DNA of 62,223 nucleotides from Candidatus Roizmanbacteria bacterium RIFCSPLOWO2_01_FULL_40_14 (lineage in GTDB: Bacteria; Patescibacteriota; Microgenomatia; GCA-001788215; 2-01-FULL-40-14): assembly GCA_001788215.1 (NCBI GenBank), contig MGAO01000037.1, positions 30,273 through 92,495 of the forward strand, read 5' to 3'. A model generated the notes under the pieces. It was not told where the DNA came from. It did not search any database and saw nothing but the letters and a program-made list of their open reading frames with translations. Position 1 is the first letter of the stretch; every line of letters begins with the position of its first letter. A program made the translations under genes and the position numbers. Below, piece by piece: positions 1-46,168 of the stretch.

Positions 1-2
1 TA

Positions 3-1130
3 GATGCCTTATTGCAGAGTGTAAAAGATAAAAAACAAATACTAAAAACGTTAATGGTCTATTTTAGTGTAATAATCCTTCTTGTTTTGACGGTATGGTT
101 ACTGATATTTACCGGAAATCTACTCTTTATCAATGAAGCTACTTCAGAGCATATTGCCATAGCAAAACGAAATTTTATACTTCCGAGTACTCTCCTATTT
201 GGTACCGTTGGTGCAATTATGATTTTATATTTCATAAAAAACAAGTTGCTTTATCGAGTAATTCTCACATCTCTGTTGCTGGTGGCAAGTTTTGACATGC
301 TTCGATTTGCCATGAAATGGATGCCCTTTGATGAAAGAGAATTTGTTTTTCCCTCGCTTCCTGTTCTGGAATATATGCAGAAAAATATTGGTATACATCG
401 GGTATATGGGCCGATTGGAAATGAAGCGTTACTACCCTTTGGGCTGCAAGGTATTGAAGGGTACGATCCACTGTATATTCGTCGATATGGAGAGCTTATT
501 CAAACAGCAACAGACGGAGTGATTCGTCCGCCTGAACGATCTGTCGTAAAACTAAACAATAGCGGAGTATATGCCAAGAAGTTGTTAGATTTGTTGGGAG
601 TCAAATATATTTTTTACTCGAAAGGGGATGGGAAAGGATCATGGGTGTTTCCTTTTTGGAACTATGAAGAAAGTATTAATCAGACACCGGTGTATCGCGA
701 TACTGTTTATGAATTGTATGAAAATAAGGATGTGTTCAATCGCGCCTTTATCGTGCATAATTATATCGTTGAAACTGACGATCAAAAGATCATAGACCGT
801 ATGTTTTCTACTGAGACAGATCTTTTGTCAACGGTCGTTCTTGAAAAAAATCCCCCCCTTACTCTAGAAAAATGTGATATTCAGGAAGAAGATGTAGTTG
901 ATATTGTGAGTTATACGCCAAATATTATTTCAATTAACCTTGAAACAGATTGTCCGGGAATACTTGTTTTGACTGACAACTATTATCCTGGATGGAAAGC
1001 CATAGTCAATGAAACAATAACACCTATATTACGGGCTAACTATACTTTTCGAGCTGTAGAAATCCCCGCGGGGGCCTCCCGTGTTGTCTACTCATTTAAT
1101 CCCTATGATTCAATTACGTCTACTAATTAA
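3..1130 (+). CDS. YfhO-like GT-C membrane glycosyltransferase, C-terminal half (5' partial; frame is open to the window edge)
   Basis: The frame stays open from nt 3. It is paralogous to the full-length ORF 4284..6560: shared AKRN(F/L)ILPS, D(M/L)LRF, EGYDPLY/SGYDPLY, and the C-terminal YYPGWKA...RANY..RAVEIPAG motif versus NWRVFIDG...RVNY..RGVIVPEG. Confidence 0.7.
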   Translation, partial: DALLQSVKDKKQILKTLMVYFSVIILLVLTVWLLIFTGNLLFINEATSEHIAIAKRNFILPSTLLFGTVGAIMILYFIKNKLLYRVILTSLLLVASFDMLRFAMKWMPFDEREFVFPSLPVLEYMQKNIGIHRVYGPIGNEALLPFGLQGIEGYDPLYIRRYGELIQTATDGVIRPPERSVVKLNNSGVYAKKLLDLLGVKYIFYSKGDGKGSWVFPFWNYEESINQTPVYRDTVYELYENKDVFNRAFIVHNYIVETDDQKIIDRMFSTETDLLSTVVLEKNPPLTLEKCDIQEEDVVDIVSYTPNIISINLETDCPGILVLTDNYYPGWKAIVNETITPILRANYTFRAVEIPAGASRVVYSFNPYDSITSTN

Positions 1131-43883: not shown

Positions 43884-43921
43884 ACTAGTGATTAGTATAC
43901 GGTAAATATTTTTAAAATCAA

Positions 43922-46168
43922 TCAGATCTGAAGCGGAGGCAATTCGTTTGACTGTAGCAGAAGTATATCGTCAAAATAAAATGTTCCCTCAGGTTTACTT
44001 CCATTTACCTGGAGCGATACGATCATAAAAAGGGCGTTTGCCGGCGCTTTCGCCGTTACAGCGACTTGTTTCCATTCGAAGTCTCCATATATCCTTGGTG
44101 AAAGTGCGGTGACTGGTCCCGGAAGGACCGTATTGGCATTTTCATTCTCATAGAAATCAATCCGGAGGAAACCGTCCCGCTCTGTTTCTTTCAAGCTTGT
44201 GTCAGACTTTATCTGTGCCGCGGCCGTATATGCAGCGCCAGGCGTAACGCGTATTTTATCTGAAACAATCCGTGGTAACGTATAATTTATTGAAGACCAG
44301 GTAAACTGTAAAGATCCTTTTGATGTGCTACCTTCTTCTGCAGAATACAGTATATCTGCTTTTGATTTTTTAGAATATTCTTGCAGATGCCAGTAGTTCA
44401 TATCTGAATTGCTGTCAAACAATGAGTAAATAATTGGGTTTTTCCCGTTTGGAAGGGCTGGTGGAAGCTGATAATACACCAGTTGCGGCTGATTGCACAT
44501 GGCGGGACGGGATAGTTCTTGAAGCAGGTTGGCACGGGATCGATATTCATGCAGAGCAAGCACGGGATAATAATTTTGATAGAGGTCAGTAGGCTTGATA
44601 AAAAAACTGATAAATTCATTCGTGTATCCTATAAGAGTGTCGTATATATTGATGAACGCAAATGGTGCGCCGGTACTCCGGACCTCTTCTATAGAAAAGA
44701 TATCATTCGGAAGCAACGGAATTAGCTCATATCCTCCTTGCGGAAACGGCATATAGCCTTTGAATGCAACGACACTCTTTGACGGTATGTTTCTGCTGAT
44801 CCAGATTGCGCTTTCCTGAAAGATATGCGGTTTGCCGCATGCCCAGCTGGATGCAAATGACTGAGTGAATGGATAGTAAAAAACAAGAATAAGAATAATT
44901 AAAAAGATTGTCCGTTTATAAGGAATTGGGCGCGAAGCCATAAAGCGCCAAAGCGACCACAAAAATACACCGACAAGTAGTGCCAGAAACGGAAGAAGCG
45001 TATCCGCCTGACGTTCGTAAAGAGCAGGAATATATAAGCTGAAATAGAGGAAAGAAAAAATAGGGATGATCATAATAAACAAAATTTTTTTATGATGGAG
45101 TATTAATAGAGAGAATATGCCCATCAGCGCGGCAATGGAGGGGAAAACGCCGAATCCTCGGTAAAACAGAAGGGTGAGGTAATACCGGGTAAACCGTGGC
45201 GGAATAAAGATTGATAAATCCGGCAATGGTTCCTGGCCTTTAGAACGGATAAATAGCACGATAGCAGATGCGTATTCAGTGAAGGGAGTCCGGTACCAGT
45301 TAAGCGCCGTCTCCACACCTTTCTGGAAAACAGGGATATTAGTTTGCGGGTTCAGGAATAAATAGGGCACGCCGGCAAATGCGCCAGGGAGAATTGAAAC
45401 GATTCCTATCATGCTGTTTCGTATCCAATACCAGTCTTTTTTTTTGACTAGAAGTAGAGCGAACGGATAGGCTAATAGCGCGAGTGGAAAATACTTCAAT
45501 GTTGACGAAAATCCGATCATAAAGCCGGAAAGAATATACCATTTTAGTTTTCCGGTCTGAAACAGGTTGACCATGAATAAGATAGACAGAGAAATGAAAA
45601 ATGTAATAGCGAGGTCCGGCACGATATAGTGTGATTCACGAACATGAAGGGGAAGAACAGCAAGCGTGAACGCGGCAAGAAGAGCAGCGTGTTTATGAAA
45701 TAATTTCTTAACAATCTGATAAATTACCAGTACACTCAATCCACCGATTAGTGCAATTTGAGCACGCTGCATCCAAAAAATGGTCATATTACGCTGATCT
45801 AATATTTTCATGCTGATGACAAAATCTCTGAACGAACCGGTCGTGTTCGGGTTGAGTATTGACTCAGAAATATACTTCATGCTCATTATAGGAAAGTATG
45901 GTAATGCCTCAAGATAATATATGAACGATCCATATTTATAATCATGCGGATCGAAATCTGCCTTTGTGACTATGTTGTAGAAAAGTTCCCCCGCATATTT
46001 TTCTACCCAAGGCTCATCTGCATGAAGCTCATTGGGAATAAGCCCCATAAGCCGCACTGTTACTCCTATAAGAAATACCACCGTGAGGAGTTTATTGTTT
46101 CTTACCTGCTCGATGCATGATTTACTTTTTGCTTTTAATAAGTGGGAAAGGCGAGAAAATGTCTTCAT
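43922..46168 (-). CDS. GT39/ArnT-like GT-C membrane glycosyltransferase with a C-terminal CBM4_9-like carbohydrate-binding domain
   Basis: N-terminal RLMGLIPNELHADEPWVEKYA and about 13 TM segments. The C-terminal ~160 aa W.LQEY...GSLQFTW...IRVTPGAAYTAAAQIK...GFLRIDFYE...WKQVAVTAKAPANA...VSLQV.G...GTFYFDDILL follow the CBM_4_9 pattern. Confidence 0.65.
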   Translation of the reverse strand: MKTFSRLSHLLKAKSKSCIEQVRNNKLLTVVFLIGVTVRLMGLIPNELHADEPWVEKYAGELFYNIVTKADFDPHDYKYGSFIYYLEALPYFPIMSMKYISESILNPNTTGSFRDFVISMKILDQRNMTIFWMQRAQIALIGGLSVLVIYQIVKKLFHKHAALLAAFTLAVLPLHVRESHYIVPDLAITFFISLSILFMVNLFQTGKLKWYILSGFMIGFSSTLKYFPLALLAYPFALLLVKKKDWYWIRNSMIGIVSILPGAFAGVPYLFLNPQTNIPVFQKGVETALNWYRTPFTEYASAIVLFIRSKGQEPLPDLSIFIPPRFTRYYLTLLFYRGFGVFPSIAALMGIFSLLILHHKKILFIMIIPIFSFLYFSLYIPALYERQADTLLPFLALLVGVFLWSLWRFMASRPIPYKRTIFLIILILVFYYPFTQSFASSWACGKPHIFQESAIWISRNIPSKSVVAFKGYMPFPQGGYELIPLLPNDIFSIEEVRSTGAPFAFINIYDTLIGYTNEFISFFIKPTDLYQNYYPVLALHEYRSRANLLQELSRPAMCNQPQLVYYQLPPALPNGKNPIIYSLFDSNSDMNYWHLQEYSKKSKADILYSAEEGSTSKGSLQFTWSSINYTLPRIVSDKIRVTPGAAYTAAAQIKSDTSLKETERDGFLRIDFYENENANTVLPGPVTALSPRIYGDFEWKQVAVTAKAPANALFMIVSLQVNGSKPEGTFYFDDILLLQSNELPPLQI

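Follow-up and report, generated by a model that had tools for sequence, protein, structure and literature searches.

How would a bacterium of the Microgenomates group employ nineteen polytopic membrane glycosyltransferases of the GT-C fold whose genes lie within about 46 kb, and on what would these enzymes act? This question was raised by a stretch of 62,223 nucleotides (nt) from Candidatus Roizmanbacteria bacterium RIFCSPLOWO2_01_FULL_40_14 (contig MGAO01000037.1), hereafter called the window, in which an earlier note, made from the letters alone, had reported this accumulation. The window displays 36-42 % GC and about 49 real genes, and the 19 GT-C genes occupy 31,705 of the 46,168 bases (68.7 %) at positions 1-46168. 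With a probability of roughly 0.6, it is considered here to be the core of a cell-envelope glycan locus conserved in the lineage, whose GT-C enzymes would form an assembly line that builds or decorates a complex glycan. To our knowledge, no Microgenomates bacterium has been cultured. A full-text literature search retrieved no description of the locus or of GT-C arrays in this lineage, journal coverage being incomplete and an earlier mention therefore possible; papers on Peregrinibacteria and Saccharibacteria report multiple copies of Dol-P-Man synthase or a single GT87 only.

Identity of the GT-C proteins

All 19 candidates were GT-C-type polytopic membrane glycosyltransferases, and the family labels of the earlier note (YfhO, PMT_2, PTPS, GT87, MptB-like, PIG-V-like and an unnamed HHQ family) were borne out by Pfam, NCBIfam, hhalign and homologs. 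Their open reading frames (ORFs) were located at the coordinates which that note had given, its starts 1105, 11673, 22492, 28835 and 37583 being in-frame ATGs within the longest ORFs (Table 1; genes are designated below by their first coordinate). The Pfam scan covered every window ORF of at least 100 aa unless nested in a longer gene, and 12 of the 19 candidates exceeded the gathering scores of YfhO (PF09586, 28.5 bits), PTPS_related (PF10131, 26.4 bits) or PMT/PMT_2 (PF02366 and PF13231, CAZy GT39/GT83-like). The YfhO gene cut by the window start is complete in locus L001 (4550-6847), where it encodes a 765-aa protein; the part encoded in the window displayed 28 % identity to the protein of gene 4284. 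Genes 20829 and 22438 scored below gathering; since they displayed 32-42 % full-length identity to the above-threshold paralogs 19090 and 24153, they were assigned to PMT_2 as well, within a set of paralogs called group A here.

The other families were delineated with alignments built from orthologs in related loci, which were then compared profile against profile (hhalign). PTPS_related profiles were linked to YfhO in this way (98-99 %). Five candidates had no Pfam match at first (28733, 11583, 32630, 7562 and 15653), which left some room for the view that most of the 19 polytopic proteins are not glycosyltransferases but transporters or membrane proteins of another kind. Protein 28733 is homologous to, but not an equivalog of, TIGR03459 (39 bits against an equivalog cut-off of 439.4), and 11583 was connected to its family and to the PMT_2 paralogs. 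Scans of 7562, 15653 and 32630 against Pfam and NCBIfam at E values up to 10 returned noise only. Protein 32630 showed no PF04188 match even at E <= 10, and hhalign detected no link between its family and the other window families (<=19 %); many homologs at 40-57 % identity are nevertheless named Gpi18-like mannosyltransferase.

Proteins 7562 and 15653 form a single family (hhalign 99.3 %, E 2e-20), here called HHQ. Among its 141 close homologs every named one is a "hypothetical protein", and no GT-C model of Pfam matched any of 30 members scanned. The AlphaFold2 model of 15653 was of high quality (pLDDT 91.6, pTM 0.90) and its best 16 Foldseek matches in the PDB were all of GT-C fold (STT3A/B, ArnT, PglB, Pmt4, PIG-U and EmbC), the top ten (STT3, ArnT, PglB and Pmt4) displaying E values of 3e-5 to 2e-3 and TM-scores of 0.36-0.46. 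Transporters appeared in the Foldseek search only at non-significant E values (> 0.1). The GT-C fold of the HHQ family was thus assigned by structure, that of the remaining proteins by Pfam or profile homology. When 1.8 billion cluster representatives were searched with a profile of the family, 2,012 HHQ relatives were recovered at E <= 0.001, of which some distant ones (about 670-690 aa) bear an N-terminal GtrA flippase domain (2e-26), i.e. a flippase/GT-C fusion, and one exceeds the PMT_2 threshold. The family is marked by an invariant aspartate (D41) within a PDExDN motif after the first transmembrane (TM) helix and by a near-invariant HHxP. Polytopic proteins annotated as hypothetical in genomes of the candidate phyla radiation (CPR) can be assigned to GT-C through structure in the same manner. 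All five initially unmatched proteins being resolved as GT-C (by NCBIfam, profile comparison, the Pfam content of homologs, fold, and GtrA fusions or PMT_2 scores in relatives), the transporter reading was refuted and is extremely improbable.

The acidic motif which the earlier note had listed among the GT-C hallmarks was invariant in all three aligned families, as D32-E33 in group A, D41 in HHQ and D64 in the family of fusion protein 1081 described below. In a crude scan, 13 of 18 GT-C proteins displayed a two-residue acidic motif while the other five showed single Asp residues. As to the 9-13 TM segments also claimed, a crude hydropathy scan that undercounts some proteins gave four to eleven helices per GT-C; the long helices that abound in the AlphaFold2 models of 15653-17392 and 1081-3168 agree with a TM core of multiple helices. 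Judging from context, namely GtrB/DPMS-like GT2 enzymes in the locus and GtrA fusions in HHQ relatives, these GT-Cs would draw on polyprenyl-phosphate-sugar donors.

Conservation and extent of the locus

Related loci were gathered by scanning the group A alignment against one genome per GTDB species, and over 580 relatives were obtained. Among those whose organism names are informative, the best 79 loci originated from Levy-, Woese-, Curtiss-, Gottesman- and Chisholmbacteria and from entries named "Patescibacteria group"; complete genomes in the related set measure about 0.8-1.1 Mb. At least five ORFs matching window GT-Cs were encountered in 42 out of 43 full 21-kb loci of other Microgenomates species, the full loci displaying a median of eight GT-C homologs from four families that covered 59 % of their DNA. 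The median density over the 79 loci was 0.38 GT-C per kb, against 0.41 in the window; as selection was made through a group A match, these figures are conditional on that gene and describe its neighbourhood, not whole genomes. The exceptional island implied by the earlier note thus gave way to a density that is ordinary in the lineage, an outcome which that note had itself said would weaken its claim.

Gene order was conserved as well. The recurrent arrangement was GT4-YfhO-GT2, three to seven group A genes, often another PMT_2, PTPS-GT2, (DUF5667-MptA-like) and GT4-PIGV-Wzx-GT2-GT4, with one to eight group A copies among loci. Orthologs closer than any window paralog were found for 19090 in 49 loci, for 4284 in 35, for 25824 in 33 and for 20829 in 27. 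Since the closest relatives of these paralogs are orthologs in other species, the duplications are old and the copies have been retained. Such orthology and the fixed order of modules fit old, non-redundant, step-specific enzymes.

The GT-C locus is therefore old and lineage-wide, not an outlier. A horizontally acquired, strain-specific island could have been suspected from a GT-C density that is extreme in comparison with ordinary bacteria and from the presence of the housekeeping gene dprA in the middle of the cluster. The GC content is, however, uniform (0.36-0.42), neither tRNA genes nor Rfam matches were found in the window, no mobile-element genes were among its Pfam matches, and a cluster of the same order occurs in the five named groups listed above. 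With synteny kept across 42 of the 43 full loci, this highly improbable explanation was refuted. The dprA gene itself is embedded mid-operon with overlapping ends; no ORF of the related loci was assigned to dprA. Arrays of the Microgenomates type and gene order were also observed in metagenome-assembled genomes labelled Gammaproteobacteria, Pseudomonadales, Deltaproteobacteria or Bacteroidia (L009, L012, L016, L017 and others), labels which are probably placeholders or attached to mis-binned contigs.

The assembly of the window was sound, as indicated by sequence of 99.98-100 % identity in contigs of independent ENA, JGI, Logan and NCBI assemblies. Identical window proteins occurred on Rifle groundwater contigs, including LBZM01000002.1 of GCA_000994655.1 and a 156.9-kb scaffold, and the closest named homologs (69-87 % identity) belonged to Candidatus Roizmanbacteria (Microgenomates group, Patescibacteria). 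The glycan locus extends beyond both window ends, spanning at least 80 kb with at least 20-21 GT-Cs. One more PTPS_related GT-C, a second Wzx and five GT2 genes were present in the upstream flank; UDP-GlcNAc 2-epimerase, methyltransferase, PIG-L deacetylase, DegT, WbqC and formyltransferase genes in the downstream flank, where the UDP-GlcNAc 2-epimerase gene running off the window is completed (L005 11102-12217). Two further polytopic genes without Pfam match were observed about 2.7-5.9 kb past the right end. In the first (L005 13851-15566, plus strand, 571 aa), the initial TM helix is followed by a QQDEW motif and hhalign gave a weak link to the PMT_2 core (89 %), so that it may be a further GT-C; the second (L005 15556-17061, minus strand) encodes 501 aa.

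Within the window, 16 of the 19 GT-C genes lie on the plus strand and three on the minus strand. The single co-directional block described in the earlier note was accordingly narrowed to positions 10849-43334, a run of 26 genes that overlap slightly or are separated by no more than 30 nt. An ORF at 61530-62000 (minus strand, 156 aa) was discarded as spurious: it matched no family and is antisense to the UDP-GlcNAc 2-epimerase gene starting at 61215.

Table 1. Features of the window in order of position (GT, glycosyltransferase; synteny refers to the related loci)
Coordinates	Strand	Feature	Evidence
3..1130	+	YfhO GT-C, C-terminal 375 aa; gene cut by window start	Pfam YfhO 37 bits
1081..3168	+	PMT-type GT-C (10 TM) fused to MecA_N + PBP_dimer	Pfam PMT 2e-8, PBP_dimer 5.8e-13
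3165..4226	+	GT4 (GT-B fold) cytoplasmic glycosyltransferase, GT4-YfhO-GT2 module	Pfam Glycos_transf_1 3.7e-26; synteny
4284..6560	+	YfhO GT-C, 758 aa	Pfam YfhO 97.8 bits
6502..7587	+	GT2, one C-terminal TM, conserved YfhO partner downstream	Pfam Glycos_transf_2 4.7e-23; synteny; NCBIfam generic
7562..9130	-	GT-C of Pfam-less HHQ family	hhalign 99.3 % to 15653 family
9283..10812	-	PMT_2 GT-C	Pfam PMT_2 45.6 bits
10849..11577	+	Soluble DPM1/AglJ-like GT2, candidate polyprenyl-phosphate-hexose synthase	NCBIfam AglJ 1.6e-33, PpgS 2.3e-18
11583..12944	+	GT87/MptA-related GT-C	hhalign 96.8 % to 28733 family, 94-96 % to PMT_2 paralogs; BLASTP 3.9e-5 to 28733
12928..14031	+	DprA, outside glycan system	Pfam DNA_processg_A 1.2e-74
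14033..15649	+	PMT_2 GT-C, group A paralog 1	Pfam PMT_2 47.2 bits
15653..17392	+	GT-C of Pfam-less HHQ family, modelled	AlphaFold2 fold and Foldseek
17396..19120	+	PTPS_related GT-C	PF10131 26.7 bits; hhalign 98 % to YfhO
19090..20832	+	PMT_2 GT-C, group A paralog 2	PMT 35.6, PMT_2 32.1 bits
20829..22490	+	PMT_2 GT-C, group A paralog 3	21.4 bits, below gathering; 36-42 % identity to other group A
22438..24156	+	PMT_2 GT-C, group A paralog 4	21.6 bits, below gathering; 31-40 % identity to other group A
24153..25811	+	PMT_2 GT-C, group A paralog 5	Pfam PMT_2 36.4 bits
25824..27533	+	PTPS_related GT-C	PF10131 59.3 bits
27482..28300	+	GT2, conserved partner downstream of PTPS-type GT-C	Pfam Glycos_transf_2 2.1e-20; synteny
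28324..28848	+	Small secreted DUF5667 protein, directly before MptA-like GT-C	Pfam DUF5667
28733..29968	+	MptA/MptB-like (GT87-type) GT-C	NCBIfam TIGR03459 4.5e-10
29965..31557	+	PTPS_related GT-C	PF10131 28.7 bits
31541..32599	+	GT4 of GT4-PIGV-Wzx-GT2-GT4 module	Pfam 4.9e-35; synteny
32630..33682	+	PIG-V/Gpi18-like (GT76-type) GT-C	Homologs at 40-57 % identity carry PF04188
33686..34942	+	Wzx-type (MOP) flippase	Pfam Polysacc_synt_3 5.6e-11
34923..35726	+	PpgS-like GT2, candidate polyprenyl-phosphate-sugar synthase	NCBIfam PpgS 4e-14, full model
35730..36824	+	GT4 glycosyltransferase	Pfam 2.2e-34
36811..37602	+	Methyltransferase	Pfam Methyltransf_11
37559..39751	+	PMT_2 GT-C, 730 aa, ~250-aa C-terminal domain	Pfam PMT_2 34.7 bits
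39756..42117	+	Polysaccharide deacetylase and two methyltransferases	Pfam
42117..43334	+	GT4 glycosyltransferase	Pfam 2.5e-39
43344..43883	-	Second secreted DUF5667 protein, directly downstream of GT-C	Pfam DUF5667 1.9e-10
43922..46168	-	PMT/PMT_2 GT-C, 748 aa, ~300-aa C-terminal domain	Pfam PMT_2 58 bits
47314..48828	-	Truncated SDR-like domain + DPMS/AglJ/PpgS-like GT2, candidate polyprenyl-phosphate-sugar synthase	NCBIfam/domain match
48825..49814	-	GtrB/ArnC/PgfS-type candidate synthase, full length, two C-terminal TM helices (aa 238, 273)	NCBIfam PgfS 6.9e-29, ArnC 2.2e-22
49856..62223	+	Nucleotide-sugar tailoring and cytoplasmic glycosyltransferase block	Pfam

Donors, acceptors and the proposed assembly line

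The companions announced for the GT-C genes (polyprenyl-phosphate-sugar synthase-like GT2s, GT4s, Wzx, methyltransferases, a deacetylase and a carbamoyltransferase) were all retrieved by Pfam, NCBIfam and PDB searches. Protein 48825 aligned end to end with GtrB (PDB 5ekp, aa 6-312), ArnC and PgfS, so that the GtrB-type synthase with C-terminal TM helices, as known from three-component systems, is present. Protein 10849 matched DPMS (5mlz, aa 5-238) and GtrB (5ekp) in the PDB, and homologs of the SDR-like/GT2 fusion 47314 recurred beside PTPS-type GT-Cs in related loci. A DAO-type FAD oxidoreductase gene (46187-47329, plus strand), for which a PDB search found nothing, is convergent with 47314 and overlaps it by 16 nt; this arrangement calls to mind DprE1/DprE2 and may hint at a comparable epimerisation of a sugar carried on a lipid. 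The tailoring block 49856-62223 comprised, in order, GT2, DegT aminotransferase, GT2, epimerase, FkbM-GT4, GT4, carbamoyltransferase, SDR, FdtA-like cupin, CapD-like dehydratase and the start of the UDP-GlcNAc 2-epimerase gene; its FkbM-type methyltransferase and GT4 reside in one protein (54016-55941, plus strand). No GtrA flippase (PF04138) was matched among window ORFs of at least 100 aa and flank genes with recorded Pfam hits, flippases of Wzx type being present instead. For some Gram-positive systems, flippases of this type have been put forward as the ones that act on C55-P-sugars (PMC8035078).

The gene content, the GT-C nature of the 19 proteins, their paralogy and the conserved, syntenic arrangement are established; the donors, sugars, order of steps and acceptor in the following scheme are inferred. 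At the cytoplasmic face, GT2s of GtrB/DPM1 type (candidates 48825-49814, 10849-11577, 34923-35726 and 47314-48828) would transfer the sugars of nucleotide donors to polyprenyl phosphate, while GT4 and GT2 enzymes would probably also make a lipid-linked primer. Sugars would be tailored by the aminotransferase, dehydratase and epimerase and by methyl-, carbamoyl- and deacetyl-modifying enzymes, and lipid-linked intermediates would cross the membrane via the Wzx-type flippases. At the outer face, some 20 specialised GT-Cs, each responsible for one sugar and a defined linkage, would elongate, branch or decorate the envelope glycan. The acceptor would probably be a wall- or membrane-anchored glycopolymer, possibly one associated with peptidoglycan.

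This assembly line was favoured because the 19 GT-Cs far outnumber the candidate donor synthases (about four to eight), because paralogs were kept one-to-one across species, because enzymes of the MptA-like and PIG-V-like families build chains in known systems, and because many nucleotide-sugar tailoring enzymes are co-located. In mycobacteria several linkages are drawn from few lipid-linked donors, and the excess of GT-Cs over donor synthases would fit a similar economy here. In every characterised case known to us, the acceptors of GT87/MptA-like and PIG-V-like enzymes are glycolipids or glycans.

The same genes could be distributed otherwise, among many parallel systems of GT2, flippase and GT-C, on the pattern of CsbB/GtcA/YfhO or GtrABC, each of which attaches one side-chain sugar to a wall polymer already synthesised (teichoic-acid-like, secondary cell-wall polysaccharide or peptidoglycan), with a heavily, perhaps variably decorated surface as outcome, e.g. 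for host recognition or phage evasion. GT-C and GT2 genes are indeed recurrently paired (YfhO-GT2, PTPS-GT2 and 9283(-)/10849(+)), group A varies from one to eight copies between loci, and YfhO and PMT_2 are families of Gram-positive systems, of which up to three per genome are known (PMC8035078). GT-Cs, however, far exceed their GT2 partners; deep one-to-one orthology and fixed order are at odds with a fast-changing decoration repertoire; and no teichoic acid synthesis genes were found in the window. The chain-building habit of MptA-like and PIG-V-like enzymes in the known cases also speaks against parallel systems, which appear rather unlikely.

As to the acceptor, the earlier note had seen none in the window. 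This was broadly true, yet two leads had been missed, a fusion of GT-C with domains of penicillin-binding protein (PBP) 2a and two DUF5667 proteins paired with GT-Cs. The C-terminal 300 or so aa of protein 1081 correspond to the non-catalytic MecA_N + PBP_dimer half of a class B PBP (bPBP) of PBP2a/PBP5fm/PBP3 type, as supported by NCBIfam PBP4(5) (4e-15), a PDB sequence match to PBP2a residues 7-301 and an AlphaFold2 model (pLDDT 90) which Foldseek matched to PBP2a at 7e-15. The transpeptidase domain is absent: the protein stops at position 337 of the 668-position model and only the N-terminal domains match. About 70 clusters of homologs were recovered, of which 69 reach nearly the full length (578-716 aa) and have recorded PBP N-terminal domains, and an ortholog occupies the equivalent position in locus L086. 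The PBP_dimer and MecA_N fold, with its allosteric and pedestal parts, is shared with PBP2a, PBP5fm and Bacillus subtilis PBP3; these proteins, in contrast, possess a transpeptidase, and their single N-terminal TM anchor is replaced in 1081 by a GT-C of 10 TM helices. Judging by the titles of PDB entries 3zg0 and 3zg5, the corresponding region of PBP2a harbours the allosteric site binding muramic acid and a peptidoglycan analogue. By analogy, the fusion suggests a tie between glycosylation and peptidoglycan or its synthases and may couple glycosylation to the SEDS-bPBP machinery. A tie to peptidoglycan would also suit the parallel systems considered above.

Both DUF5667 proteins are small, secreted and all-helical. 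Orthologs of 28324 occurred in eight related loci (L021, L028, L030, L031, L048, L059, L066 and L082) and, in the three for which both coordinates were available (L031, L048 and L082), abut or overlap the MptA-like gene from directly upstream. A function as Ser/Thr-rich acceptors was rejected in view of their ordinary Ser/Thr content, which makes an accessory role likelier than an acceptor role; they may be accessory or acceptor-binding partners of the GT-Cs. No clue to the acceptor came from the soluble domains at the C-termini of 37559-39751 and 43922-46168, for which PDB sequence searches found nothing useful.

Proteins themselves could be the acceptors if the PMT-like GT-Cs attach various sugars to proteins that are secreted or exposed at the surface (pilins, S-layer proteins, Ser/Thr-rich regions), as do actinobacterial Pmt and streptococcal Pgf/GtrB. 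The window contains nine PMT/PMT_2 genes (seven above and two below gathering score), some proteins weakly matched archaeal Agl23 and STT3 models at sub-threshold scores, NCBIfam giving no equivalog match, and the GT2s resemble PgfS and AglJ; PMC12041528 describes streptococcal GT-C systems that modify Ser/Thr-rich regions of membrane-associated proteins. Nonetheless, neither a Ser/Thr-rich nor any other candidate acceptor protein was seen in the window, PMT_2 enzymes are mostly directed to lipids or glycans, e.g. ArnT, GtlB and GacL (PMC8035078), and the MptA-like, PIG-V-like, YfhO and nucleotide-sugar tailoring genes point to a polymer. Protein O-glycosylation is thus deemed unlikely.

Several points weigh against the glycan assembly line in its turn. 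Relatives of PMT/PMT_2 include true protein O-mannosyltransferases, so that protein acceptors are conceivable, and the GT-C density in related loci depends on the group A match by which they were chosen. A priming phosphoglycosyltransferase, Wzy, a WaaL or LCP ligase and GtrA were not seen in the window and about 18 kb of flanks, and the GT2s adjoining YfhO (6502-7587) and PTPS (27482-28300) were not clearly of GtrB type.

A bolder version of this assembly line can only be advanced tentatively, namely that these bacteria, whose biosynthetic capacity is minimal, devote about 7-10 % of a DNA of about 1 Mb to an ancient GT-C line, physically coupled to peptidoglycan synthesis by the PBP2a-domain fusion and making a new, major heteroglycan or lipoglycan of the envelope. 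If true, bacteria of this group would possess a counterpart to the pathways of mycobacteria or of the ER (endoplasmic reticulum) lumen, one that defines surface biology such as host attachment and phage receptors; among its parts would be a GT-C family and a domain architecture, at least one of each, so far uncatalogued. Some 20 outward-facing glycosyltransferases entail a testable prediction, a complex and lineage-specific surface glycan on Microgenomates cells, for which the locus offers targets: the full-length GtrB-like synthase, the orthologous GT-C sets, the Pfam-less GT-C family (about 2,000 cluster representatives) and the PBP-domain fusion.

Comparison with known systems

The earlier note had recognised here a combination of the actinobacterial lipomannan/lipoarabinomannan (LM/LAM) toolkit with the CsbB/YfhO toolkit of Firmicutes. 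The likeness was confined to the level of families, no protein approaching an equivalog score, and consequently neither mannose nor a product (LAM, teichoic acid) can be deduced from it. The locus differs from known systems by its extreme density of GT-C genes in a single place, its conservation in the lineage, its Pfam-less GT-C family and its GT-C/PBP-domain fusion.

The closest functional analogues are the multi-component transmembrane glycosylation systems of Gram-positive bacteria, the mycobacterial and ER pathways being also near in logic. CsbB/GtcA/YfhO, GtlA/GtlB and GacI/GacK/GacL (PMC8035078) share with the locus YfhO and PMT_2 GT-Cs, GT2s of GtrB/CsbB type, the adjacency of GT2 and GT-C genes, the option of a Wzx-type flippase and an envelope of monoderm type. 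Gram-positive systems are, however, scattered and number one to three per genome, whereas 19-21 GT-Cs are assembled here in one locus, where they far outnumber their GT2 partners, where no GtrA gene was found and where the MptA-like, PIG-V-like, PTPS_related and HHQ families are additional.

In the mycobacterial synthesis of LM, LAM and arabinogalactan (Ppm1, MptA/B/C, PimE, Emb/Aft and Pmt), many GT-Cs likewise share few polyprenyl-phosphate-sugar donors outside the membrane. MptA-like and PMT-like families are common to both, and the small secreted protein adjoining the MptA-like gene is loosely comparable to LpqW. The proteins are only distant homologs (39 bits for TIGR03459, whose cut-off is 439), and neither arabinosyltransferases of Emb/Aft type nor genes for a phosphatidylinositol anchor (PIM) were seen here. 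The mycobacterial genes are dispersed over 4.4 Mb, in contrast to a comparable number here in about 50 kb of a genome that probably measures about 1 Mb.

In the eukaryotic ER-lumen series (ALG3/9/12/6/8/10, PIG-M/V/B/Z, PMT and STT3), each paralogous GT-C is responsible for the transfer of one sugar, with a Dol-P-sugar as donor. The window likewise contains PIG-V-like and PMT-like members, and the HHQ model best matched STT3, ArnT and PglB; unlike that series, the locus described here is bacterial and organised as an operon.

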